64,000 bases of DNA from Candidatus Omnitrophota bacterium (GTDB lineage: Bacteria; Omnitrophota; Gorgyraeia; Zapsychrales; Fredricksoniimonadaceae): the NCBI GenBank assembly GCA_903860135.1, contig CAIOPG010000004.1, forward strand, positions 185,687-249,686, given 5' to 3'. Positions 174 to 25,710 of the stretch are shown in pieces; the stretch's first letter is position 1; each line of letters opens with the position of its first letter. The translations under genes were made by a program, and so were the position numbers. The notes under the pieces were generated by a model, which saw nothing but the letters and a program-made list of their open reading frames with translations, made no database searches and was not told the DNA's origin.

Positions 174-1657
174 CACGGCTCACCCCCCGGAAGATCCGCA
201 CCTTCATCTGAGAATGCCTGCGAGAGGGAAACACTGCGGACTGTCAGAAAAATGGCAAATTCTTCATGACGCACAGCGCCGTCCATACGAAACGCAAACC
301 CCAGCAGGGGCAAATCGCCGAGCAACGGGATCTTGTGTGCCGCCGAGATCTGTTCGGAAATCAGGATACCGCCGATCACCGCCGTATACCCTTCCCGAGA
401 ACTCAACGTGTGAAAACGCTCTGGGGCCATTACGACTTTTCCTGCCAGGTGTGAACGCGCCAGGGTGATCGCTGTCACGACATCTCCGGTCACATCAAAA
501 GAAGGCCTGACTTTGAATTCCATGGACGTTCCCGCCAGCGCGCGCGGCAACGCCTCCTTGCCGGTATCAAGCACGGGCTCAGCCGCTATCGCCAGAAGCG
601 GATCGTCGAGCCTCAGGATAGCCGACGCCTGATCATCCCCCGAAACCGTCACCGATGACAATGGATATTCCTGAACAATGCCCACCGTGTCCAACGCCTC
701 GATCAAGGTCGCGAATTCATCACTGGCGATCATGCCCAGCCCCAGGGCGCGACCGCTGTTGCCCTCGGCCAGAAAATCATACCCCGCCGGAAGCCGCACC
801 CGCTGATAATCCTCCACAATACCCGCCCAATCCACGCCGCCGCGATGTTCGTCATCGAGCAAGATACGCACCAGCTTGGCCTCAAGGACCATAACCCGGC
901 CGCGCGCATCGGCCGCCGCCACAGCCCGGCGTACCTTTTCAAGACGGGCCAGGGTATCGGTGACCGTGAGCGTATTGGCCTTGGCATCGGCATCAACCGC
1001 CCCGATGCCACGGGTCAGGAGGTCCCGCACTTCGGGCACCAATGCCTCAACCATCACATGCCTGAGCGCGATGACCACCGTAGAAACCGGCACATCAACC
1101 TCGACCAGCAGTCTTTCCATCTCTTTGACCTTGGCGCGGTCATCCATGATAAAAATAGTCCCGGCCTCCTCGTTGGCCACGAGCTTACCCTTGGCGCTCT
1201 TCATTTCATCGAGAATTTTGAAAGCATCACGCAGCGGCATCACATGCAGTTTGACGAGCTTGGAAACAAGATCCTGCCCAAAGGCATAGCCGTAACGGGA
1301 CTTGAACTCATCGCCGGCCATGACCCGGATGATCCCGCCCTCTTCGACCGAAGCAAACCCGCCGGATTCAAGCACAGTCCGCAACGCTTCACGGGCATCG
1401 ACATGCTTGAGAAAGACCGTAATATTACCCCGGACATCTTTCCCGGCAATGATGTTCAGCCCGCTCTTCTGGGCAATGATCTCGATGGCTTTGGAAATGT
1501 CCGTATCCTTGAGTGCCAGCTCGTCAATGACCGGGCCGCCGAGCATGAGTGTCGCGGCCGTTGCTGAAGGCAACGCATATCTCTCCTGCTCCGCCCTCGC
1601 TGGAGAAAGAAATACGCACAAAATAAAGGCTATAAGGAGACAAGGTATTTTTTTCAT
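173..1657 (-). CDS. Type II/IV secretion system secretin (GspD/PilQ family)
   Basis: Signal peptide MKKIPCLLIAFILCVFLSPARA (ATG at 1657 preferred over the TTG at 1702 reported by the track). N0/secretin_N-like N-terminal domains. C-terminal secretin motif IPLLGDLPLLGFAFR. Confidence 0.85.
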   Translation of the reverse strand: MKKIPCLLIAFILCVFLSPARAEQERYALPSATAATLMLGGPVIDELALKDTDISKAIEIIAQKSGLNIIAGKDVRGNITVFLKHVDAREALRTVLESGGFASVEEGGIIRVMAGDEFKSRYGYAFGQDLVSKLVKLHVMPLRDAFKILDEMKSAKGKLVANEEAGTIFIMDDRAKVKEMERLLVEVDVPVSTVVIALRHVMVEALVPEVRDLLTRGIGAVDADAKANTLTVTDTLARLEKVRRAVAAADARGRVMVLEAKLVRILLDDEHRGGVDWAGIVEDYQRVRLPAGYDFLAEGNSGRALGLGMIASDEFATLIEALDTVGIVQEYPLSSVTVSGDDQASAILRLDDPLLAIAAEPVLDTGKEALPRALAGTSMEFKVRPSFDVTGDVVTAITLARSHLAGKVVMAPERFHTLSSREGYTAVIGGILISEQISAAHKIPLLGDLPLLGFAFRMDGAVRHEEFAIFLTVRSVSLSQAFSDEGADLPGGEP

Positions 1658-1727
1658 ATATTTAATGCACGTTATTGTCTTGGAATTGACAAAGACTGTC
1701 AATGGTTAAAGCCGGATTGTTTCTCGC

Positions 1728-3497
1728 TCACGTCCGCATGAAGTGGCGGTCGAGGAAACTGGCGCGCAATTCGATAAAGACAGGCCGGCCATGAGGGCAG
1801 GTAAAAGGGTTCGCACAGGCCATCAGGGCGCGTACCTGATGCAGGGCTTCCGTATCCTGCATGCGGTCGCCGGCCATGACCGAGGCGCGGCAGGCGCGAC
1901 GGGCCAAAGCATCGTGGTCAGATAAAGGGAAAGGTTCATCGGATAATAAAGCCCGTGCGGCATCCTCAGGGCGCGCCAGCAGGACAGGGGCGGTATGCAG
2001 CGCGATCGTGTCCCTGCCCGCCGCGGTAGTTTCAAAACCAAAAAGAAAAAGACGCTCCCCGGCCTCCTCGAAAACAACCTGTTCGCGCGGAGAAAGTTTC
2101 AATACCAAAGGCACCAGAAGACGCTGGACTTCCACCTTGCCGGCAACAACCTGGGCAGAAAACTTTTCAAAGAGGATCCTTTCCTGGGCGGCATGCTGGT
2201 CGATCACAAACAGGGCATCCCCGTCCTCAAAAAGATGGTAGGTACGGGCAAAAGTGCCGATGAAACGCGCGCGGGCAAGGCGGTCTTTCAACGTGTCTTC
2301 CCGTTCTTCAACGTAACGCGCGGCGAATCCGGGGAACACGCCTTGCGCGGGAACACCCGGCACTGACGGTGATGCAATGCGCGCGGATGATAGGGGCTGA
2401 CTGACGACGGGTAAATCCTCGGGCATGGGGAATAATGGCGTTGCGGGCTCAACAGGCCGGACAGGCCTGCCGGGCGCAAACGGCGCCGCGATCTCCCGCG
2501 CCCCACCCTGGCTCATCAAAAGATGTTCAGCTTGCGCACGCAGCAAGCCGCCCAGGCGGGCTTCCTGCCGGATACGCACCTCACGCTTGGCCGGATGGAT
2601 ATTCACATCCACATCTTCCGGCGGAATATCCAAAAAAATGGCAAACGCAGGATGAACGCCGTCGGGCATGATCATGCGGTACACATCATTGACATGAAAG
2701 AAGATCGCGCGGCTCTGCACCGGGCGGCCATTGACAAAGAGGAACTGCAGGTCGCGGCGCGGGCGCTGGATATTAATATCACCTAAGATCAACCGCACGG
2801 CAAAACCTTCCGCCGATACCGCCTTTTCACCGGCAATAATGTAGCGCTCTTCGAGGTTAAGGGCCGCCGCAAAACGCCCCGCCACCGAGGCTGACACAAG
2901 ATCCAGCAAGGTGCGGCCATTATGGGTCAGCAGGAATGAATGTCCCGGATACAACAACGCGTACGGCAGGACAACATGCAGGACCTGCTCAAGCTCGGCG
3001 GGATCGCTCTTGAGGAATTTCTTGCGGGCAGGCGTATTAAAGAAAAGCTCTTGCACACGCATCTCCGTCCCCTGCTCCGGCATGACCGCCGGGCATGCCG
3101 CCCCTTTCGCCCCGCCGTGCACCTCCATCGCCCAGGCCTCGTCCACACCGGCAACACGGCTTTTGATATGAACCTCTGCCACCGCACCAATGGAATAAAG
3201 CGCTTCACCTCGAAACCCGAGCGAGAGGACATTCTCAAGGTCAGCGGCCGTTGCTATCTTGCTTGTGGCGTGACGCTGGAACAGGAGCGCAAGATCATCC
3301 GGCGCGATCCCCTGACCGTTATCGCGGACATGAATAAGCGTTTTCCCGCCATCTTTAAGATGCACCTCAACGCGCGTGGCACCGGCGTCGAGGGCATTCT
3401 CAACAAGCTCCTTCACGACCGAGGCCGGACGTTCCACCACCTCGCCAGCAGCAATGCGCGCGATCAGCGCCGGTGAAAGAACATGGACAATAGGCAT
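1728..3497 (-). CDS. mutL: DNA mismatch repair protein MutL
   Basis: N-terminal GHKL ATPase motifs IARIAAGEVVERPASVVKELVENALDAGATRVEV. ATG at 3497 (MPIVHV) has AAGGA RBS 9 nt upstream; track start at 3515 is TTG. Immediately downstream of mutS. Confidence 0.9.
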   Translation of the reverse strand: MPIVHVLSPALIARIAAGEVVERPASVVKELVENALDAGATRVEVHLKDGGKTLIHVRDNGQGIAPDDLALLFQRHATSKIATAADLENVLSLGFRGEALYSIGAVAEVHIKSRVAGVDEAWAMEVHGGAKGAACPAVMPEQGTEMRVQELFFNTPARKKFLKSDPAELEQVLHVVLPYALLYPGHSFLLTHNGRTLLDLVSASVAGRFAAALNLEERYIIAGEKAVSAEGFAVRLILGDINIQRPRRDLQFLFVNGRPVQSRAIFFHVNDVYRMIMPDGVHPAFAIFLDIPPEDVDVNIHPAKREVRIRQEARLGGLLRAQAEHLLMSQGGAREIAAPFAPGRPVRPVEPATPLFPMPEDLPVVSQPLSSARIASPSVPGVPAQGVFPGFAARYVEEREDTLKDRLARARFIGTFARTYHLFEDGDALFVIDQHAAQERILFEKFSAQVVAGKVEVQRLLVPLVLKLSPREQVVFEEAGERLFLFGFETTAAGRDTIALHTAPVLLARPEDAARALLSDEPFPLSDHDALARRACRASVMAGDRMQDTEALHQVRALMACANPFTCPHGRPVFIELRASFLDRHFMRT

Positions 3498-7204: not shown

Positions 7205-9558
7205 AAAGAAAAATCCTGATCTCTTTCCTGTGCGCTGTTTTTTGCCTGACACAAAATCTGCCTGTTTTCGCCCAGGACCCTGTTGCCACCAATAAAGAAT
7301 TAGTGGGGCTGGAACAGCTCGCCACGGACATCACCACGGCCAAGGACGCCATTAAAAGCTATCAGAACAACGAAAAAGACCTTACCAACATGATCCGCGA
7401 CCTCATCACAGAGAACGACGCGCTTTACACGTCGCTTTCCAAACGTTCGCGTGAAGTCGCCGAACTGCGCGCCAAATTCTACGGCATCCCCTATAACCAA
7501 GCTTACAACAAAGCCATGACGGATATGCCACCTGACCGCGTTCCCCAGCGCTTGCATCCTGATGATGATACACTACCGGTTCCCGTGCCCATGATCGACC
7601 TCGAAACCCCAACGATCGTTACCAACGACCCTGTCTCTGGGAAGAACAGGCAGGAGATCGACGATCTCATCGCCGACATTGCCATACTTCATCAAGCAAA
7701 GAACACCTCACGCAATCCTCAGGCTCTAGCTGACAAGAAAGCTGAAGCTTCCCTGCAGGCTAAAAAAGAAATGCTCCTGCTTGAAATACAAACATTGTCT
7801 GAAAAACAAGAACGCCTGACCGAAAAACAAAAATCCACTGAGGTCAAGATCAAAGAAAAAGTCGATAATCTCCAGGATCTGGAAGCCCCTAAGAAAACAG
7901 CCGAAAGCCATCCAGCCAAAGCAGTGCCAGCTCCGAAGAAAGAACCTGAAAGCCGCACCTCCAAAACTGTCCCATCTTCAAGAAAAGAACCTGAAAGCCG
8001 CACCACCCAAGCCATACCAACACCAAAGAAAACAGCTGAAGTCCAGCCTGTCAAAGTGCCACGCCCGACCAAGAAAGCCATTGAAACACTGCAAGTCAGA
8101 AAGAACACGCTGGTTAAAAAAGTGGCGACATTATCCGAGAAACAAAAGAGCCTCATCCGGGAACAAACCCCCGCTGTCAAAATCGCCGAAGCGAAACACA
8201 ACAGCAACGATACGGTCGGATCCCTACTGCAAGCCAAGAAAGACCGCCTGATCCAGGAAATCAGAAAAATCTCCGAAGAACAGCTCATCATTACCGCTCG
8301 ACAAAATGCAGGTAGCCACCAAACCGTCGTTGCGCCTATACCTTCCCAAAAAGAGCCTGCCCGAAGCTTACAGGCCAAGAAAGACCTTCTGACTGAAAAG
8401 ACCAAGTCTCTGGCTGAAAAACAACACAGCCTTGTCGCCCTGAAGCAAGAGTTAACCACGATCAACAAAGGCTTAAAGAACGCCAACAACCGTTATCTGG
8501 AAGCGATCAACAAGATCGACAACTATTATCGGGATATCAAAGGGGAAGTCTCGGGAAAGAACTACGTCCGCCAAACAATGTTCGCCAATCTGCTCAAGGA
8601 TTACACTCAGAAAACAAAAGAAGCCAACATGATCTGGAGTGCCGTCCGTAGCCGCGACAAGACCCTCCAGCAATTCAAGATGAAACTCGCCGAGCAAAAC
8701 ACCCGCATCAAAAACATCGATGACAATATGCTTGCCATGGATATTCAACTGGGCACTTACAAGGCAATGCTAACGCAATACAGGAACGAACTCGAACGCC
8801 GCGCCACGCTGATCCGAGACCAGAAAAAACTCCTCGACATGACCGACCAGAAACTGACAGAGGCTTCCACAAAAGTTTCCGTCATCGAAAAGACCCTCGA
8901 AGAAAGTAATGCCGCGCTCACCCGTATGCCGACCGGGATAGACCGCATCAGGCAAATGCTCATCCGGAAAGACAAAGCCATCAAAAAAATAAATGAAACC
9001 ATCAACCTCCGGCAAGAACACAATACCGGCAAGATCAACACCCTTAAAGATCAGGTCTTTGTCCAAACTGCCCACGCCGAAAAGCTAGTCGCTGAGAATG
9101 CGGAGATCACCGGACGCCTTGACACCAGCAGGAAAGAATTGGAAACTGCCAACGAACGCATCCGTTTCCTCGAACGCAGCCTCGAAAATATGGTCATCCG
9201 GTTGAAAGCCAACCGTATCCCCGTCGCCGCTCCGTCGACCAAAGATCTCGATGACAAGATCATGGATCTGGAAGCCAAGCTTGACCGTAAAGAAGTCCAG
9301 CTCGAAGAAGCCCGGACAAGGATATTCGACCTCACCCACCAGCCCAACACCCCGGCACCCGTCATCAAGCCAACAGCACCCCTAAGTCCGGCGGCTGAAG
9401 ATGCGCTCGCCCGCGCACGCATTACTGTGGCCGAACTGACAGCCAAACTTGAAAGCAACCTCGCCGAGATCGGCCGGTTGAAAGAACTGCTGGGCATTAA
9501 AGAAAAAGAATACCCGCAGACAAAGAAACCCTCAGGCCAGGTCGCGCAAAAACCTTGA
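7201..9558 (+). CDS. Secreted coiled-coil repeat protein, hypothetical
   Basis: Signal peptide MKRKILISFLCAVFCLTQNLPVFAQDP. Four copies of an LQAKK..L...SEKQ motif. Duplicated KKEPESRT segment (21-bp direct repeat near 7939 and 7984). Highly charged coiled-coil throughout. Confidence 0.6.
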   Translation: MKRKILISFLCAVFCLTQNLPVFAQDPVATNKELVGLEQLATDITTAKDAIKSYQNNEKDLTNMIRDLITENDALYTSLSKRSREVAELRAKFYGIPYNQAYNKAMTDMPPDRVPQRLHPDDDTLPVPVPMIDLETPTIVTNDPVSGKNRQEIDDLIADIAILHQAKNTSRNPQALADKKAEASLQAKKEMLLLEIQTLSEKQERLTEKQKSTEVKIKEKVDNLQDLEAPKKTAESHPAKAVPAPKKEPESRTSKTVPSSRKEPESRTTQAIPTPKKTAEVQPVKVPRPTKKAIETLQVRKNTLVKKVATLSEKQKSLIREQTPAVKIAEAKHNSNDTVGSLLQAKKDRLIQEIRKISEEQLIITARQNAGSHQTVVAPIPSQKEPARSLQAKKDLLTEKTKSLAEKQHSLVALKQELTTINKGLKNANNRYLEAINKIDNYYRDIKGEVSGKNYVRQTMFANLLKDYTQKTKEANMIWSAVRSRDKTLQQFKMKLAEQNTRIKNIDDNMLAMDIQLGTYKAMLTQYRNELERRATLIRDQKKLLDMTDQKLTEASTKVSVIEKTLEESNAALTRMPTGIDRIRQMLIRKDKAIKKINETINLRQEHNTGKINTLKDQVFVQTAHAEKLVAENAEITGRLDTSRKELETANERIRFLERSLENMVIRLKANRIPVAAPSTKDLDDKIMDLEAKLDRKEVQLEEARTRIFDLTHQPNTPAPVIKPTAPLSPAAEDALARARITVAELTAKLESNLAEIGRLKELLGIKEKEYPQTKKPSGQVAQKP

Positions 9559-17908: not shown

Positions 17909-18066
17909 TTAGATCCGCTTGCCCTTCTTGCGCTTGCGCTCGGAAGGTTTGGCGTAAAAACGACGCTCCTTCAATTCGACAAGAAACCCGTCGCGCTGGC
18001 ACTGCTTCTTGAACTGGCGCAGGGCCTTTTCAAACCCGTTCTTGTCGCTGATCTTGACTTCGACCA
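17909..18066 (-). CDS. rpsU: 30S ribosomal protein S21
   Basis: Hand translation: MVEVKISDKNGFEKALRQFKKQCQRDGFLVELKERRFYAKPSERKRKKGKRI. 52 aa, so below the ORF-track cutoff. Basic C-terminus and RRFYEKP-like motif typical of bS21. Confidence 0.8.
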
Positions 18067-18326
18067 TATAAAATTCACCCGCCCTTCACACCATGATATG
18101 GTGCTTGAATTAAAAAATTATACCTTTACGCGTAAAATCCGCTCCAAAACCACAATATTTTCCCAAAAAAGATGTGTTATGGTAGCACAAAGGCTAGCTT
18201 ACGTCAAATGCCTTGAAACCCGCGCCGGGATGTCCAGGGACGAGGTTGATGAAATTATTCCTCTGCGCGCAACACCACGGAACGGTTTAAAGCCGTTCCC
18301 TACAGCATAATGTAAAACATGGGACT

Positions 18327-19037
18327 TTATCCATTAACCCCGAACAAAGCCCCTGCGGCGGCTGTTACGGCCATGGATATGGCACCCCAGAAAACAATGC
18401 GGATGATGGCCCTGGTCATAGGCGCGCCGCCGATGAACGCTCCGGCAGCGCCGAAGCCGGCGAGAAAAACAAGTGTGGCGCCGAAAACAAGGCTGATCAC
18501 CCAGGCCCCTGGGGTAAGAAGCGCCACCAAAAGCGGCAGGATGCCGCCGATGGCAAACGATGCGGCCGACGCCAGCGCGGCTTGTACCGGACGAGCAGTG
18601 GTGATATGGGAAATGCCGAGTTCATCGCGCGCATGCGCCGCCAGGGCGTCATGGGCTGTCAATTGCCGGGCCACCTGCACGGCAAGATCCGGGTCAAGGC
18701 CGCGCCCACGGTAAATGGATGCCAGCTCCTCCAGCTCCTCCTCCGGCCCCTCCTCAAGTTCCCGGCGCTCCCGGGCCAGATCAGCGCGTTCTGTATCCGC
18801 CTGCGAACTGACCGAGACATATTCACCGGCGGCCATGGACATCGCCCCGGCGATCAACCCCGCCACACCGCTCACCAGGATCACACTGCGCGGCGCATGC
18901 GCGGCCGAAATACCGACCACCAGGCTGGCCACCGACAAAAGACCATCGTTGGCACCCAAGACAGCGGCACGCAACCACCCGATCCGGTCCGTCCGGTGCC
19001 TTTCAATGTTGCTTTTGATAACCATATCCACCCCCAT
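18327..19037 (-). CDS. VIT1/CCC1 family (DUF125) membrane protein, putative Fe/Mn transporter
   Basis: N-terminal LRAAVLGANDGLLSVASLVVG motif and a hydrophobic C-terminal half are characteristic of VIT-family proteins. Confidence 0.75.
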   Translation of the reverse strand: MGVDMVIKSNIERHRTDRIGWLRAAVLGANDGLLSVASLVVGISAAHAPRSVILVSGVAGLIAGAMSMAAGEYVSVSSQADTERADLARERRELEEGPEEELEELASIYRGRGLDPDLAVQVARQLTAHDALAAHARDELGISHITTARPVQAALASAASFAIGGILPLLVALLTPGAWVISLVFGATLVFLAGFGAAGAFIGGAPMTRAIIRIVFWGAISMAVTAAAGALFGVNG

Positions 19038-19100
19038 TGCCCGCGCGTGTTACGGCCTTTTCGCCTCAGCCTTCACCTGCGTTGTCTATCAACAAAGCCA

Positions 19101-20378
19101 TTAAAACGAAAATGTTTTCCTGAGCAACGCCCACAGCGGTGACAGCAACATCATGCCGGTCAAGGCGATCAGAACGATCGTTGTCGCCCAGCCGACGAAG
19201 TTCTGAAACTTGTTATTCACATAAGTTCCCATGACATACGGGCTGTTGACCATGTAGATCATGGACAATAACACGACCGGCAACAGCATGGCATTGATGA
19301 CCTGCGTCCAAATGGTGATCGCGATCAAAGGCGCGTTCGGCCAGAGGATGATCCCCACCGCCACCGCAATAATGCTTCCAAAAAGCCAGTAAAATTGCGG
19401 TGCCTCATCGACCCGCTTGTCGATGCCGGCCTCAAAACCAAAGGCCTCGCACACATAGAACGCCGTCGCCAGAGGCAGGATCGTCGCCGAGAAGGCGGAA
19501 GCGATAAAAAGCCCGAACGCAAAAACCTGTGACGCCAGGACCCCGGCAAAAGGCTGAAGTGCCAGCGCGGCATCGCTCGCTTCTTTGATCACCACGCCGT
19601 TCTTGTTCAACGTCGCCGCGCAGGCGATCATGATGAAGAAAGCCACCACAATAGTCGCGGTACAGCCGATCACCACATCAATGAGCGCGAACTTGTAATC
19701 CTTGATCGTGATGCCCTTTTCAATGACCGCTGACTGCATGTAAAACTGCATCCAGGGCGCGATCGTCGTCCCGATGATGCCAAGCACAATGCTCAGGTAT
19801 TCCCCGCCAAATTGCGCCCGGGGATGGATGATCGCGGCACCGACCTCGTGCCAGTCGGGTTTGGCCATGACCGCAGAAATGATATAAAAAAGCAGGCAGA
19901 AACTGAAGAACAGGAATATCCGCTCGGCGATCTTGTAATTCCCCTTGGTCGCCAGCACCCACACCGCCGCCGCTGTGAGCGGCACCGAAAGGTACTTGCT
20001 GACCCCGAAGATCGCCATACTGCCCGCCACCCCCGCGAATTCCGTGGCTGTATTGCCGATATCAGCCACAATAAGACCGAGGAAAATGAAAGCCGTGACC
20101 TTAACACCGAAATTCTCGCGGATCAGATCCGCCAGCCCCTTGCCGGTGATAACCCCCATGCGCAGGTTCATTTCCTGGATGACCAAAAGGGCAACGAAAG
20201 CAGGTCCCAGCGTCCACAGGAGATTATACCCGTACAGCGCGCCCGCCACCGAATAGGTCGTGATGCCGCCGGCGTCGTTGTCCACACTGCCGGTGACGAT
20301 GCCCGGCCCCAGGATGGCCAGGAACATCAGGACATTACGCGTCGCCGGGCTGTTCTTTATGTTTTCGATGATGCGCAT
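19101..20378 (-). CDS. NRAMP/SLC11-family transporter with non-canonical metal-site residues
   Basis: About 11 TM helices. ILGPG..SVDNDAGG..AGALYGYNLLW aligns to the TM1 DPGN region (reads D-A-G-G, Asn not conserved). TM6 reads SATILPL where canonical MntH has A..MPH. ATG at 20376-20378, 1 nt after the upstream gene stop. Confidence 0.85.
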   Translation of the reverse strand: MRIIENIKNSPATRNVLMFLAILGPGIVTGSVDNDAGGITTYSVAGALYGYNLLWTLGPAFVALLVIQEMNLRMGVITGKGLADLIRENFGVKVTAFIFLGLIVADIGNTATEFAGVAGSMAIFGVSKYLSVPLTAAAVWVLATKGNYKIAERIFLFFSFCLLFYIISAVMAKPDWHEVGAAIIHPRAQFGGEYLSIVLGIIGTTIAPWMQFYMQSAVIEKGITIKDYKFALIDVVIGCTATIVVAFFIMIACAATLNKNGVVIKEASDAALALQPFAGVLASQVFAFGLFIASAFSATILPLATAFYVCEAFGFEAGIDKRVDEAPQFYWLFGSIIAVAVGIILWPNAPLIAITIWTQVINAMLLPVVLLSMIYMVNSPYVMGTYVNNKFQNFVGWATTIVLIALTGMMLLSPLWALLRKTFSF

Positions 20379-20379
20379 A

Positions 20380-21672
20380 TCAGATCTGATCCTTATATTT
20401 ACCCCAGGCCATGGCAATGAGCTCTTCCATGACGTCATCGACCGTGATCGACCCCACGAGGATGTCATTCTCATCGAGCACCGGGATCGCCGAATATTTG
20501 TATTGCTCGATCAGGAGCGCCACTTTTTCCATCCCGTCATCCGTATAAACAAAAACCTTGTGGGGATGACAGGTATCGACCACGCGGTGATCCGGCGGCT
20601 CATTGATAAAACGCCGGATCGTCGTCGTGCCAAGGTACCGGCCTTGATCATCGGTGATATAAAGGGTGTTGAAACTACCGGGATAATCCACGGCACCCTT
20701 CAATTTGTTCATGGCATCCATCACCGTCGCGTTGACGCCCAGGGACAGGAATTCCGTCGCCATCAACCCGCCCGCCGAATCTTTCCGGAAACCCAGCAGG
20801 GTACGCAAGCGCTTGGACGCCTGTGATTCCATCTGCCGCATCAACTGCTGAACGCGCTCGCGGGGCACCGTCATCAGGAAATCCGCCGCTTCGTCGGAAG
20901 GGATGTGCGTGACGATCTGGACAAGCTCGTGATCCCCCAAAAGGCTCACCAACCCGGACTTGTCGTCGGGCGCCATATCCGCAAACACTTTAAGCTGAAC
21001 ATCGAACGTCAGCGAACGAAAAACAGAAAGCTGTTCGAACCGATCCAAGTCGCGCATGATGTCAGCCAACAGGACCGGCGGGATCTTCGCGATCTTGGCG
21101 CGCGCCACGTCGAGCTTGAGCACATTCTTCTGATTGCCCAAGGTCAAGACCTGGGCATTCTTCCACGACACCAGCTCCTCGGCCTTCAGGTAATCCGCTG
21201 CCGGACGAAAAAGCCGAATAACCGTATCAACCACAGGCTCCAGGTCAAGGCGGCGCACCAGCGCGCGCAGGCCGACATCAACGTGCGCGATATGGTACTG
21301 CTGTTCAACCTTGAGGATATGCACATCATTGACGCGCACCACCTTCTTGTTCTCGACGTCAACAACCTGCTGGTCGAGCACATCGCGCCGCAAGGCAAAA
21401 TCACTGGTGATCTTGGCTTTCTGAAAAAGAACCGCCGCAACAGGGATCCTGAGATAAACCTTGTCCTCGATGCGGAGCACATCCGTCAAAAGAACCTCGG
21501 CATACCGGCGGGGAAACAAACCGGCACAAATGATAAGACTTTTGGCCCGGGGATAAATGTCGTTATTGAGCGCCATGGAAAAATCATAGAATTGACCCAC
21601 AGCCCGGCCGTCCCGGTCGACGACAGGCTTGCCCAGCAATTCAAAAAGATAGACAAAGAATTGTTCACCCAT
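20380..21672 (-). CDS. Soluble PRC-barrel + MgtE_N + CBS-pair protein (MgtE cytoplasmic module without a membrane domain)
   Basis: N-terminal PRC-barrel-like GKPVVDRDGRAVGQFYDF. MgtE_N-like helical region. Two CBS motifs near the C-terminus (...SAIPVLDENDILVGSITVDDVMEEL). No hydrophobic segments. 430 aa. Confidence 0.75.
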   Translation of the reverse strand: MGEQFFVYLFELLGKPVVDRDGRAVGQFYDFSMALNNDIYPRAKSLIICAGLFPRRYAEVLLTDVLRIEDKVYLRIPVAAVLFQKAKITSDFALRRDVLDQQVVDVENKKVVRVNDVHILKVEQQYHIAHVDVGLRALVRRLDLEPVVDTVIRLFRPAADYLKAEELVSWKNAQVLTLGNQKNVLKLDVARAKIAKIPPVLLADIMRDLDRFEQLSVFRSLTFDVQLKVFADMAPDDKSGLVSLLGDHELVQIVTHIPSDEAADFLMTVPRERVQQLMRQMESQASKRLRTLLGFRKDSAGGLMATEFLSLGVNATVMDAMNKLKGAVDYPGSFNTLYITDDQGRYLGTTTIRRFINEPPDHRVVDTCHPHKVFVYTDDGMEKVALLIEQYKYSAIPVLDENDILVGSITVDDVMEELIAMAWGKYKDQI

Positions 21673-21719
21673 ACCGCGGGACTCTCGTTCTTTTCTGATC
21701 TTGCCAATGACGAAAAAAC

Positions 21720-22361
21720 TTACCGCGAAACCGTAACGCCGACTTTACCGCACCGCGTGTTGATGCCACAGGCAGAACACCGGGGTGAAACCGGGCGGCA
21801 CACATTCTGCCCCCACAATACAAGCACCCAGTTGATGTCTTTCCAGTACGCCGTCGGCAAGCGCTGGCGTAACACCTGCTCTGTCTCATCGGGCGTGCGC
21901 GTCCTGACATACCCTAACCGGTTGGTGATACGATGCACATGCGTATCAACGCATATCCCCGGCTTGCCAAACCCTTCGACTAAGACAAGATTGGCCGTCT
22001 TCTGCCCAACCCCTTTGAGACGTAATAACCCCTCGAGCGTATCGGGCACGCGACCACCGCATTCCTCAAGGATAACCCGGCTGATATCAAGGATCCGCCG
22101 GGCTTTGGTACGGTAGAAACCGACGGGATAAACAGCCTGCTCCACCTGATCACTCGACAACTTTAACATATGCTCCGGTGTATCCGCAAGGGCAAATAAA
22201 CGCTCCGCCGCCGGCAGGGTCGTTGTGTCCTTGGTCCGCAAGCTGAGCAGGCACGAAACCAGGACCAGGTAAGGGCTATGCCAGCGCTTCCCGACGAGCG
22301 TCACCGACGGATCCGGCCACGCCCTGACCGCCCGGCGCAACGCGTCCAGGGTGGCCGCCAT
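21720..22361 (-). CDS. nth: Endonuclease III (DNA glycosylase/AP lyase)
   Basis: HhH-GPD fold. 4Fe-4S cluster loop C-x6-C-x2-C-x5-C (CRPVSPRCSACGINTRC). ATG at 22361 with GGAGG RBS; the track start at 22376 is GTG. Confidence 0.85.
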   Translation of the reverse strand: MAATLDALRRAVRAWPDPSVTLVGKRWHSPYLVLVSCLLSLRTKDTTTLPAAERLFALADTPEHMLKLSSDQVEQAVYPVGFYRTKARRILDISRVILEECGGRVPDTLEGLLRLKGVGQKTANLVLVEGFGKPGICVDTHVHRITNRLGYVRTRTPDETEQVLRQRLPTAYWKDINWVLVLWGQNVCRPVSPRCSACGINTRCGKVGVTVSR

Positions 22362-22372
22362 TTGCACCTCCG

Positions 22373-24250
22373 TCACGGCCTTTGCTCCGCAAAATATTTC
22401 TTCAAATAAATCATCAGGATAGACACCGCCGCCGGCGTGATCCCCGAAATGCGGTTGGCCTGCCCGAGCGTCGCAGGCTTGAACCGCCCCAGTTTCTCAC
22501 GCGCCTCATGCGACAGGCTTTTGATCGCCGCGAAATCAAAGCCCTCCGGGATGCGTATATTTTCCAAATGCCGGAATTTCTCAACTTCTTTCTGCTGCTG
22601 GATAATGAAGCCTTCATACTTGATGTCATACTCGACCCGCGCCAGGATATCCGGCGGCACCGTCGCAAGCACCGTATCAAAAGGGCTGATCTGCGCGCAC
22701 GTGACGCCAGGCCGCTTGAGCACATCATACAGGGGCATCTTCTGCGCCAAAGGCGCCTGCCCCAAAGCTTCTAGGATCGGATTCATCTGGGCAGGGACGG
22801 CCACCGTATCGCGCAAATGCTGTGCCGTTTGACGGGCACGCGCGTACTTGTCCTCCACCGCACGGCAAACATCATCGGAAACAAGACCGAACTTCCGGCC
22901 GTAAGCCACAAGCCTTTCATCAGTATTATCCTCGCGCACGATCAACCGGTATTCCACGCGCGACGTGAACATGCGGTAAGGCTCCTCTGTCCCCTTAGTG
23001 ATCAAATCATCGATCAGAACCCCCGTATAAGCTTCATCCCGGCGCAACATGAAAGGCGCCTCTCCCCGGACGTACAATGCCGCGTTGATCCCTGCCACGA
23101 TCCCCTGCGCGGCGGCCTCCTCGTACCCGGTAGTGCCATTGACCTGTCCAGCAAAAAAAAGCCCGCCTATGCGCCGAGACTCCAGCGTAGCCTTCAACTC
23201 CTCGGCATAAATAACCCCGTGCTCGATCGAATACCCGTAACACAGGAAAGCCGCCTTCTCCAGCCCCGGGATCGTATGCACAAAAGCCTCCTGAACGGCT
23301 TCGGGAAGCCCCGTTGACAACCCGTTGGGATAGACCACCGGCGTCCCCAGGCCATCGGGCTCCAGGAAAACAGGATGCGATGTTTTATCCGCAAATTTCT
23401 TGAGCTTGTCCTCGATCGACGGGCAATACCGCACCCCAGTCGCAGATATCTGACCGGAATACATCGGCGAAAGATGGAAATTATCACGGATGATCTGGTG
23501 GGTGGTGGCGTTGGTGTGCGTGAACCAGCAGGGCAACAGCCTGTCGCGCGCAGGAATTTGCTTTGTTCGAAAAGAAAACGGCACTATAACATCATCGGAA
23601 TACTGAGCCTCAAGGCAAGAATAATCAATGGTTCGCGCATCGAGGCGCGGCGGTGTGCCGGTCTTAAAAGAACGGAGCGTGAACCCCAGCACTTCAAGGC
23701 TGCGCGCCAGATCAATCGCGGCGGCATCGCCACTACGGCCGCCCGGCGTGATCCTTGGTCCCAGATGACAGCGCCCGTCAAGGAATGTCCCGGCCGTCAC
23801 AACAACAGTCGGCGCTTCAAGGATCCCCCCATCCTTCAAACGCAAGCCCGTCACACGGCCATGGCCGAGCAATATCTCCACAGCTTCGCCTTCATAAAAC
23901 TCAAGGCCGGGCTGTGCTTTCACGACGCCCTGCATATACGCCCTGTAACGCATCCGGTCCGATTGCACACGCGAAGACCGTACCGCCTGGCCTTTGGAAG
24001 CATTCAACTGCCGGAACTGGACAGCCGTAAGATCTGCCGCAAGCCCCATGGCCCCGCCGAGAATATCCACTTCGCGCACCAGCTGACCCTTGCCGATCCC
24101 GCCAATGGCCGGATTACAGCTCATCAACCCTATTGTCGCCACGGAATAATTGACCATCAGGGTGGAAACACCCATGCGCGCCGAGACCAACGCCGCTTCT
24201 ACGCCCGCGTGGCCTGCTCCAATGACGATACAACCAAACGATCGTCGCAT
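22373..24250 (-). CDS. mnmG: tRNA uridine-5-carboxymethylaminomethyl modification enzyme MnmG (GidA)
   Basis: FAD-binding N-terminus CIVIGAGHAGVEAALVSARMG. 625 aa. Conserved MnmG C-terminal domain. Confidence 0.95.
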   Translation of the reverse strand: MRRSFGCIVIGAGHAGVEAALVSARMGVSTLMVNYSVATIGLMSCNPAIGGIGKGQLVREVDILGGAMGLAADLTAVQFRQLNASKGQAVRSSRVQSDRMRYRAYMQGVVKAQPGLEFYEGEAVEILLGHGRVTGLRLKDGGILEAPTVVVTAGTFLDGRCHLGPRITPGGRSGDAAAIDLARSLEVLGFTLRSFKTGTPPRLDARTIDYSCLEAQYSDDVIVPFSFRTKQIPARDRLLPCWFTHTNATTHQIIRDNFHLSPMYSGQISATGVRYCPSIEDKLKKFADKTSHPVFLEPDGLGTPVVYPNGLSTGLPEAVQEAFVHTIPGLEKAAFLCYGYSIEHGVIYAEELKATLESRRIGGLFFAGQVNGTTGYEEAAAQGIVAGINAALYVRGEAPFMLRRDEAYTGVLIDDLITKGTEEPYRMFTSRVEYRLIVREDNTDERLVAYGRKFGLVSDDVCRAVEDKYARARQTAQHLRDTVAVPAQMNPILEALGQAPLAQKMPLYDVLKRPGVTCAQISPFDTVLATVPPDILARVEYDIKYEGFIIQQQKEVEKFRHLENIRIPEGFDFAAIKSLSHEAREKLGRFKPATLGQANRISGITPAAVSILMIYLKKYFAEQRP

Positions 24251-24363
24251 ATATAATGCCTGATCAATTAATAAAAGGAAGGACTGCTAACGGTGTATTG
24301 CTCTTTAAAAACATAAAGCAGAAGGTATTTGCATTGTAAATAACGCCACCATGACCTCAATCG

Positions 24364-25710
24364 TTATTTTACGATATCCCCGACAGACAAAGCAGATGTT
24401 TTTTGCTTGATGTCGGCAGCAGAGATATCCTGACGGACCTGAATAACCTCAATGGTACCTACAACAGCACCCTTATGATAAACCTTGAATGAATCCCCAA
24501 CCTTGATGCCTGTTTTCTCACCCTGATCAATGATCACAAAATTATTGTCCTCATTCAGGCTGACAATACTACCCTGGATTTTACCAGTCCTCGTCGTTGT
24601 CTTTGCGGACGCATCCACAGATACCTTAACGGCCGGAACGGTCTTTTCCACATCAACCTTTTCCTGAACAGGCTCGTCCTTATTTACAACGATCGGTGCC
24701 AGCTCAACTTCTCCCGCTGGCTGTTTTATAACACGCCCTTCAAAACGCTTATCGATATCTTTTTTGATCTGCCATATTTCATCGATCCTGCTCTGAATAA
24801 TATTCTCGGTTTCCACCAGCTTCTTCTCGATCACATTCTTTTCCTCGGAAAGCCCGGCAATGCTCTTCTCAAGGGCAACTTTGGTCGTTGTTAACTGCTT
24901 GACATCCTGCCGGAGCTGCTGATTTTCCTCACCTATCTGGGCAGAACGATCGCTGGTCATCTTCTGCTCATTCCGCGCACGGGCCAGTTCAACAGAGAGA
25001 TTATCGGCAAGATCTTCACCATATTTAATCTTGCGCACGATCTCGTCGCGCTCATTCTTCACACGGCCAAGCTCAAGCTCCACATCAGAATTGCTTTTTT
25101 TGAGTTCCGATACAACTAAATTACTTTTGGTCAAATCTTCTTTAAGTTTTTTCAACTCTAGTTCAAGAGCCGCTTTCTGACGCACAACCCCCGCCCAGTA
25201 AAGATCGCTACCAGCTTCAACGGTTAAGGCTTGATTGGATACATTCTGGCCAGCCTCGGCAGGACTATCACGGTACACGATCTTTTCAACGATCTTTTCA
25301 ACCGTACCCTTGCTCTTTAACTCCGTCACTTGCTTGATCAACTCGTCGCGCTCGCGACGAACACTGGTCAATTTTTCATCCCAATCCAGCTGTGCTTTTT
25401 TGGTTTTCTGGATCTCGTTGTTTAATCGTGTGATTTCAAGCTGGGCATCGTCAGCTTTCTTGACAAATCCATCCCGCTCATTGTTGCGCTGATCAAGATC
25501 CTTCCGCAGGCTATCGGCATCTGCCTGCAAGCTGGATAATTTCTTTTGCTGCTCAATGGCCTTGGCCTCATATTCAGAAACCCGTCCAGAAAGGATTCCC
25601 ACTCGAGCCTCTGCTGATTGTTTCTGGGCAAAAAGAACATATCCGACAACCACGGCTAACGCAACGAGAACGCCAAGGATCAGAATGCTTTGTTTGATCT
25701 TTATCGACAT
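24364..25710 (-). CDS. Membrane-anchored coiled-coil protein with a C-terminal beta-rich domain, hypothetical
   Basis: ATG at 25710 (GGAGA RBS). One N-terminal TM helix ILILGVLVALAVVVGYVLF. About 300 aa of coiled coil. C-terminal GKIQGSIVSLNEDNNFVIIDQGEKTGIKVGDSFKVY... small-barrel-like domain. Confidence 0.5.
   Translation of the reverse strand: MSIKIKQSILILGVLVALAVVVGYVLFAQKQSAEARVGILSGRVSEYEAKAIEQQKKLSSLQADADSLRKDLDQRNNERDGFVKKADDAQLEITRLNNEIQKTKKAQLDWDEKLTSVRRERDELIKQVTELKSKGTVEKIVEKIVYRDSPAEAGQNVSNQALTVEAGSDLYWAGVVRQKAALELELKKLKEDLTKSNLVVSELKKSNSDVELELGRVKNERDEIVRKIKYGEDLADNLSVELARARNEQKMTSDRSAQIGEENQQLRQDVKQLTTTKVALEKSIAGLSEEKNVIEKKLVETENIIQSRIDEIWQIKKDIDKRFEGRVIKQPAGEVELAPIVVNKDEPVQEKVDVEKTVPAVKVSVDASAKTTTRTGKIQGSIVSLNEDNNFVIIDQGEKTGIKVGDSFKVYHKGAVVGTIEVIQVRQDISAADIKQKTSALSVGDIVK

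Follow-up and report, generated by a model that had tools for sequence, protein, structure and literature searches.

Gene layout at the locus

The 64-kb window considered here (the whole stretch of DNA analysed: 64,000 nucleotides (nt) of contig CAIOPG010000004.1, positions 185,687 to 249,686, from assembly GCA_903860135.1 of a Candidatus Omnitrophota bacterium) carries a pair of adjacent genes for a magnesium-sensor-like soluble protein and a metal-ion transporter. Both open reading frames lie on the minus strand and run in the same direction. The upstream gene (20380..21672, including the stop codon) encodes a 430-amino-acid (aa) protein with two PRC-barrel-like domains followed by MgtE_N and a CBS pair, an NRMT-associated MgtE-like accessory protein that we refer to as the partner. 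The downstream gene (19101..20378, including the stop codon) encodes a 425-aa transporter of the NRMT (NRAMP-related Mg2+ transporter) type within the SLC11 family.

At the gene junction (20379..20382, minus strand), which reads CAG ATC TGA T ATG CGC, exactly 1 nt separates the TGA stop codon of the partner from the ATG of the transporter at 20378-20376. The transporter's true start is this ATG at 20378 (MRIIENIK...) and not the first in-frame ATG, at 20474. A preliminary description of this DNA had reported a 430-aa soluble protein ending 1 nt before an NRAMP-family gene, and its coordinates, junction and MgtE_N and CBS assignments were all recovered here, with the PRC match remaining sub-threshold. 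Identical copies of both proteins occur in public data on a 343-kb contig, and the closest relatives carry the label Candidatus Omnitrophota. Neither a second NRMT nor a full MgtE was found elsewhere in the window.

Identity and metal-binding site of the transporter

Our analysis places the transporter close to the one NRMT that has been characterised in detail. The Pfam Nramp profile (PF01566) covers the full protein (profile positions 1-356 of 357, E=4.8e-90), and the best match in a phmmer search of the PDB was EleNRMT from Eggerthella lenta (7qia; E=1.3e-102, 347 bits), which aligned without gaps from query positions 13-413 to chain positions 33-433. Canonical MntH/DraNramp chains matched far more weakly (~1e-26, about 91-97 bits), as did ScaDMT (~1e-13). 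A MAFFT alignment of 64 sequences (the window transporter, EleNRMT and 62 neighbours from related loci) gave 44% identity to EleNRMT over 401 residues.

NRMTs are defined by a DxxG-TxxA/T signature (Ramanadane et al. 2022, PMC8806188), and the window protein carries it in full. The binding-site motif in transmembrane helix 1 (TM1) is D35-A-G-G38 (20265..20276, minus strand), in which the Asn of the canonical DPGN is replaced by Gly, and that in TM6 is T204-T-I-A207-P-W209 (19752..19769, minus strand), in which Trp takes the place of the coupling His. EleNRMT residues D55, G58, E133, T224, A227, W229 and Q379 correspond to D35, G38, E113, T204, A207, W209 and Q359 in the window protein, so that all signature residues are identical to those of the characterised transporter. 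Proton-coupled NRAMPs have two histidines in alpha6b; other residues stand there in EleNRMT (PMC8806188), and the window protein has W209 and M214 at these positions, with the alpha3 Glu (E113) and the alpha10 Gln (Q359) kept. The preliminary description had read TM1 as D-A-G-G with loss of the Asn, which the alignments confirm (D35-A36-G37-G38). It had also read TM6 as A..L with loss of the soft-metal Met; the loss of Met stands, but both the HMMER alignments (to DraNramp and to EleNRMT) and the 64-sequence MAFFT alignment give the residues as T204-T-I-A207, followed by W209 at the His position. The site is accordingly non-canonical, matching neither D-P-G-N nor A-x-x-M, and the assignment to an NRMT-type transporter made in that description holds.

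EleNRMT transports Mg2+ and Mn2+ and not Ca2+, shows no H+ coupling, and loses Mg2+ transport in the T224A mutant, experimental evidence that the TM6 Thr matters for Mg2+ (PMC8806188). The window protein resembles EleNRMT (PDB 7QIA/7QIC/7QJI/7QJJ) in Pfam family, length, the DxxG/TxxA/Trp/Gln site and the alpha3 Glu, and differs at the second alpha6b His position, which is Met214 in the window protein and Asn in EleNRMT. It also shares the NRMT clade with CabNRMT of Clostridium acetobutylicum (Ca_c0685/Ca_c3329), though the window locus, unlike Ca_c0685, has no M-box riboswitch. In contrast to EleNRMT and CabNRMT, the window protein comes from an uncultured Omnitrophota lineage and is known here from its sequence alone. 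Judged by these similarities, the transporter almost certainly belongs to the NRMT clade of SLC11/NRAMP, and Mg2+ is probably its main physiological substrate. Uptake should be driven by the membrane potential and uncoupled from H+, with Mg2+ entering in a largely hydrated form and Mn2+ carried as well.

Domains and Mg2+-site ligands of the soluble partner

Pfam searches matched the partner to MgtE_N (aa 199-298, E=5.7e-17) and to CBS (7.8e-15), with a PRC (PF05239) match below threshold (E=0.0096, 16.3 bits versus a cutoff of 21.2). Its domains, all encoded on the minus strand, are in order a PRC-barrel-like beta domain (aa 5-90, 21403..21660), a second beta-rich domain (aa 94-172, 21157..21393), an MgtE_N helical domain (aa 195-295, 20788..21090), and a CBS pair with a short C-terminal helix (aa 299-426, 20395..20778), the last supported by Pfam, by PDB profile alignment and by an AlphaFold2 confidence (pLDDT) of 84-93. 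The second beta-rich domain (pLDDT ~66-77) has no Pfam match alone and is where the family is most strongly conserved (LDQQ.VD...RVND...VDVG..R..RRL), with invariant columns at D100, Q102, D105, R113-D116, V131, D132, G134 and R141. In the AlphaFold2 model, built from 114 sequences, aa 6-74 form a beta domain and aa 94-170 a second, beta/alpha domain; aa 173-193 are a disordered linker, after which come the helical N domain and the CBS pair. Since its mean pLDDT is 76.7 and its predicted TM-score (pTM) 0.39, the individual domain folds are credible and their mutual arrangement is not.

MgtE cytoplasmic domains were the top matches of the partner in both sequence and fold, with the family profile matching 8gpv at 2.8e-41 and 2yvy at 1e-37 over profile positions ~187-416. 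The protein ends at aa 430, just past the CBS pair, without the C-terminal five-helix transmembrane pore domain (PF01769), and its score against TIGR00400 (MgtE channel) is 141 bits, below the cutoff of 232.75. The regulatory Mg2+ sites of Thermus thermophilus MgtE (TtMgtE) have been defined (PMC5882242), and when they are mapped onto the partner, the Mg4 ligands D91 and D247 fall on D260 and D413 and the Mg6 ligand D95 falls on D264; D260 and D264, equivalent to TtMgtE D91 and D95, thus lie within the MgtE_N domain. None of the three residues varies, either in the 20 sequences aligned for the mapping or in the family alignment of 114 sequences, and a set of 73 diverse representatives conserves D260 and D264 as well. 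Compared with the MgtE cytoplasmic domain (T. thermophilus 2YVX/2YVY; 8GPV, 8GPS), the partner keeps the Mg4 and Mg6 ligands and an AGGLM motif but lacks the transmembrane pore, has a plug helix that stops after ~15 residues, and carries an extra N-terminal tandem PRC-like module; any gating by the partner would also target a separate and unrelated LeuT-fold protein. TtMgtE R187 and F227, which we take to be ATP-site residues, are kept as R353 and Y393.

The tandem PRC-like module points to a particular group of MgtE channels as the partner's relatives. A phmmer search with the 191-aa N-terminal head against 1.84 billion representative proteins found 949 relatives, and among the best 150 of these the complete-looking proteins were mostly 400-450 aa long, with seven metagenomic proteins (P0289, P0322, P0327, P0332, P0348, P0361 and P0371) reaching 593-621 aa. 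Five of the seven carry PRC, MgtE_N, CBS and the MgtE transmembrane (MgtE-TM) domain, and the other two have no Pfam match to MgtE-TM. Partner aa 6-416 is collinear with aa 1-403 of these ~600-aa proteins (27-32% identity, E=1e-41 to 1e-61), and the motif of the second PRC-like domain (LDxQxVD...RVND...DVG...RRLG) is common to the partner and the full-length PRC-MgtE channels. Whereas five of the seven (P0289, P0322, P0327, P0361 and P0371, for example) carry PF01769 and keep an Asp at the D226 position of the Mg5 site, the window partner terminates before the transmembrane domain. By this comparison the partner corresponds to everything that a PRC-type MgtE channel has on the cytoplasmic side, namely the tandem PRC-like barrels, the N domain and the CBS pair, and lacks the pore, as the preliminary description had proposed in calling it the cytoplasmic part of MgtE without its pore. 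The collinear match to the whole cytoplasmic part makes 'split MgtE' an apt name. We found no mention of a PRC barrel linked to MgtE in the searchable literature.

Linkage of the two genes across genomes

In a survey of 80 genome loci carrying the partner, nearly all of them from Omnitrophota metagenome-assembled genomes, an NRMT gene lay immediately downstream of the partner in 63 complete cases and a further 8 truncated by contig ends. The spacing between partner and NRMT in these related loci was commonly -4, -1 or +1 nt, which suggests that the two genes are translationally coupled. Sampling from the transporter side gave a similar picture: among the contexts of seven close NRMT homologues, six had a neighbour of ~430-441 aa with MgtE_N and CBS regions, in either gene order, and the source names on some of those protein clusters included Elusimicrobia, Acidobacteriota, Chlamydiota, Aminicenantes and Patescibacteria.

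The NRMTs at these loci form two clades, one of 14 sequences (13 loci and the window) that are 70-91% identical to the window protein and one from 49 loci that are ~50% identical to it, and both carry the NRMT signature. Three Omnitrophota NRMTs located just downstream of the partner (loci L027, L033 and L041; ~7312-8650 in each) have N-S-A-G in place of D-A-G-G in TM1, and T-T-I-T-P-W in TM6; the metal-binding Asp, which has been described as conserved throughout SLC11, is missing from them. At locus L087, one of the contexts sampled from the transporter side, where the NCBI name of the NRMT cluster is '[Chlamydiota bacterium]', a divergent corA gene (1047-2024, minus strand) lies beside the partner-NRMT pair, which fits an Mg2+ theme.

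Relation to published nrmT loci

Both this arrangement and the feedback hypothesis have been known since 2014, and the window locus is another example, from Omnitrophota. Shin et al. 2014 (PLoS Genet; PMC4072509) named NrmT, reported that most nrmT genes adjoin a gene for an MgtE N-terminal cytoplasmic domain, and suggested, as speculation, that the adjoining protein serves in 'cytoplasmic feedback regulation of transport' or as a metal chaperone. The preliminary description, which regarded the arrangement as uncharacterised, was therefore right about the mechanism only: the pairing had been reported and a feedback role proposed in that study. Ramanadane et al. 2022 (PMC8806188) did not discuss the partner, and we found no later work on the accessory protein beyond these two papers in the searchable literature. 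Compared by published description, the loci with nrmT and an 'MgtE-like fragment' (the Ca_c0685 operon and Acp2976/Acp2977) have the same two-gene order, with the MgtE cytoplasmic homologue immediately upstream. The partner at the C. acetobutylicum locus, unlike that in the window, is split into two genes, and the Acidobacterium capsulatum pair, like the window locus, has no riboswitch.

The riboswitch comparison bears on substrate, since only a subset of NrmTs, marked by the M-box, were considered high-affinity Mg2+ transporters by Shin et al. 2014, and the riboswitch-less NrmT of A. capsulatum fully rescued a Mn2+-uptake mutant and partially rescued an Mg2+ mutant (PMC4072509). Rfam searches found no M-box (ykoK leader): at the gathering threshold there was no match in the whole window or in 13 related loci, and positions 18000-24500 had none even at E<=1. 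No Rfam family reached its gathering score anywhere in the 64-kb window, which therefore contains no tRNA, rRNA or riboswitch by this measure. The window pair thus lies outside the riboswitch-marked high-affinity subset, and the space upstream of it is only 47 nt.

To the published picture our data add that the partner's counterpart is the entire cytoplasmic part of a ~600-aa PRC-MgtE subfamily, that it keeps Mg4 and Mg6 but not Mg5 and Mg7, that the pair has no M-box, and that at least one genome carries the two genes unlinked.

A proposed feedback role for the partner

By homology, the locus is shown to combine a predicted H+-uncoupled Mg2+/Mn2+ uniporter with a cytoplasmic module bearing two of the inter-domain Mg2+ sites of MgtE. 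The best overall explanation, to which we give about an even chance, is a two-gene nrmT locus in which an NRMT uniporter is accompanied by a trans-acting MgtE-like feedback sensor; for the specific proposal, also made in the preliminary description, that the partner regulates NRMT in trans, our confidence falls just short of even. Because the acidic Mg4/Mg6 ligands at the interface of the N domain and the CBS pair are kept, the partner would be expected to close at high Mg2+. When cytoplasmic Mg2+ is high, its N and CBS domains would clamp together, and the clamped partner would inhibit NRMT in trans, acting as a feedback brake on the uniporter. By our own reasoning, an uncoupled uniporter of a divalent ion (z=2) at about -120 mV has an equilibrium at ~10^4-fold Mg2+ accumulation. 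Some brake seems needed, since loading of this order is possible and the locus lacks the M-box that provides control in Firmicutes.

A conceptual parallel exists in K+ transport, in which the RCK rings of KtrA and TrkA gate KtrB and TrkH: there too, a cytoplasmic ligand sensor encoded beside a transporter regulates it in trans, and the complex is structurally proven. The folds are unrelated to those considered here, however, and the partner-NRMT pairing is known in our data from genes alone. More tentatively than for regulation in trans, we suggest that the partner may be a portable Mg2+-sensing gate, a module that closes the MgtE pore in cis and that, once detached, would regulate the LeuT-fold uniporter NRMT in trans; the two would then form a two-component Mg2+ uptake system under post-translational feedback control, with a wide distribution in uncultured phyla. 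The observations that bear on this idea are that the tandem PRC-like head is shared with the PRC-MgtE subfamily, that the Mg4/Mg6 ligands are kept, and that the partner is retained even when unlinked. If it is correct, one regulatory module serves two structurally unrelated transporter folds. NRMTs make up the fourth class of Mg2+ importers in bacteria, and work on the single characterised member did not include the partner that genomes conserve beside it; if the partner does sense Mg2+ and act in trans, this would account for how an uncoupled uniporter of divalent cations avoids overloading the cell. The window locus is a potentially useful test case, combining tightly coupled genes and the lack of a riboswitch with many natural pairs for co-evolution analysis and multimer modelling.

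A number of observations weigh against a feedback sensor acting on NRMT. The partner's Mg2+ sites are incompletely conserved: Mg5 is half-lost (D226 is replaced by K392, an invariant Lys in the subfamily, and the D250 position holds E416), the Mg7 ligand is lost (E59 is replaced by K228, Lys or Arg in the family), and the plug-helix sites Mg2/Mg3 are absent. Since full-length PRC-MgtE channels also have the second PRC-like domain, it is no docking site peculiar to NRMTs, and the MgtE plug mechanism is not transferable to NRMT, because the plug helix is covalently joined to its own pore and NRMT has an unrelated LeuT fold. Linkage is also incomplete. Eight Omnitrophota loci among the 80 (L018, L026, L032, L034, L039, L040, L050 and L056) have room for an adjacent NRMT and none there; these loci keep nth, the gene directly upstream of the partner, together with the partner itself, followed in most by two conserved proteins and then by purH where the locus extends. 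In one of these genomes, on contig CAZNDZ010000001.1 (1.34 Mb; L081), the NRMT stands alone, ~300 kb from the partner. The two NRMT clades are scattered over three partner clades, which implies that the transporter gene has been replaced several times over while the partner next to it was inherited vertically, and no partner column was found to track NRMT type (A or B) across the three partner clades, in a comparison of low statistical power. When 5.8 billion proteins were searched with a chimera that joined the CBS pair to the NRMT N-terminus, no genuine partner-NRMT fusion was found; the sole match with both CBS and Nramp regions (P0402, 405 aa, from a 74.9-kb ENA contig) was rejected as an assembly artefact with several frameshifted, out-of-frame stretches, and the best 150 of the 949 PRC-head relatives included no protein of fusion length (~850 aa). 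The published experiments point the same way: EleNRMT is a monomer that transports alone in proteoliposomes (PMC8806188), NrmT of C. acetobutylicum complemented without its partner, and co-expression of A. capsulatum Acp2976/2977 gave no further gain in Mg2+ rescue (PMC4072509). That co-expression assay, however, scored improved rescue and not protection from overload.

Alternative explanations

Given that the partner lacks the MgtE transmembrane domain and that full-length PRC-MgtE relatives exist, it could be a truncated pseudogene remnant of a full-length MgtE, with the pairing an accident of gene decay, an outcome that the preliminary description had named as one that would undo its reading. 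We reject this explanation and give it practically no weight. The partner has 743 homologues at E<=1e-5, the best 120 of which are nearly all 428-436 aa long and end at the same point; an alignment of 114 partner sequences has 35 invariant columns; and the ratio of nonsynonymous to synonymous substitution rates (dN/dS) relative to L001 and L002 is 0.06-0.08, with dS near saturation. Both the partner and the NRMT genes are under purifying selection, the partner's stop codon is placed for coupling to the NRMT start in many lineages, and a tblastn search with a full PRC-MgtE found no MgtE-TM remnants in the window. The partner therefore represents a conserved, full-length protein family. A weightier concern is substrate: the transporter may physiologically carry Mn2+ or another transition metal, with the locus serving Mn/Fe homeostasis and the partner sensing Mn2+. 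The A. capsulatum results described above, obtained with an NrmT that likewise sits beside an MgtE-like gene without a riboswitch, fit this view, as does the restriction of high-affinity Mg2+ transport to M-box-marked NrmTs. EleNRMT also binds Mn2+ more tightly than Mg2+, with dissociation constants (Kd) of ~100 uM and ~400 uM, respectively (PMC8806188), and a VIT1-family gene of the Fe/Mn exporter type follows the pair on the same strand. Yet the binding site has the same residues as in EleNRMT, among them T204, the counterpart of a Thr on which Mg2+ transport depends, and Mn2+ transport only modestly; the soft-metal Met and the H+-coupling residues by which NRAMPs concentrate trace metals are absent; and ~100 uM is a weak affinity where a trace metal is concerned. 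VIT1 does not keep its place beside the pair in other loci, and at L087 the neighbour of the pair is corA. We therefore regard a primary role in transition-metal transport as unlikely.

A similarly low probability attaches to the idea that the soluble protein works on its own, either as a regulator responsive to Mg2+ and nucleotides or as a metal chaperone or buffer, with a target that is not NRMT or not only NRMT, so that the adjacency would reflect co-regulation and not a complex. The loci that retain the partner by nth without an adjacent NRMT are what this explanation would lead one to expect, together with the partnerless NRMT of CAZNDZ010000001.1, the swapping of NRMT type relative to the partner phylogeny and the want of covarying partner residues. 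The partner's most conserved domain, moreover, is one it has in common with PRC-MgtE channels, and PRC barrels elsewhere mediate protein-protein contacts (CdpB1/2, for example). A chaperone role was the alternative offered by Shin et al., whose co-expression test was negative (PMC4072509). Against this stands the very strong adjacency of the two genes, in both gene orders across the contexts sampled and often with overlapping stop and start codons, as is usual for subunits produced at a fixed ratio. Both genes persist in the genome where they are unlinked, and outside Omnitrophota the partner has no other conserved neighbour. A trans-acting feedback sensor for NRMT remains our preferred reading of the locus, at the strengths given above.

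Neighbouring genes

Upstream of the pair and on the same strand, the region 21720..24250 (minus strand) holds mnmG and then nth, with the 47-nt gap falling between nth and the partner. The order of nth and partner is kept through partner clades 1 and 2 of Omnitrophota (the window and L001-L056). Since nth is directly upstream and this order is conserved, the partner-NRMT pair may be co-transcribed with housekeeping genes.

Downstream, 63 nt beyond the NRMT gene and on the same strand, is the gene of the VIT1/CCC1 family (Fe2+/Mn2+ exporter type; 18327..19037, minus strand), followed by purH. We considered this gene as a third component of the system and rejected it: the adjacency occurs in the window only, L001, the closest relative, has two genes in between, and the other 79 loci have no VIT1. 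A terminator-like hairpin (18353-18321) overlaps the end of the VIT1 gene.

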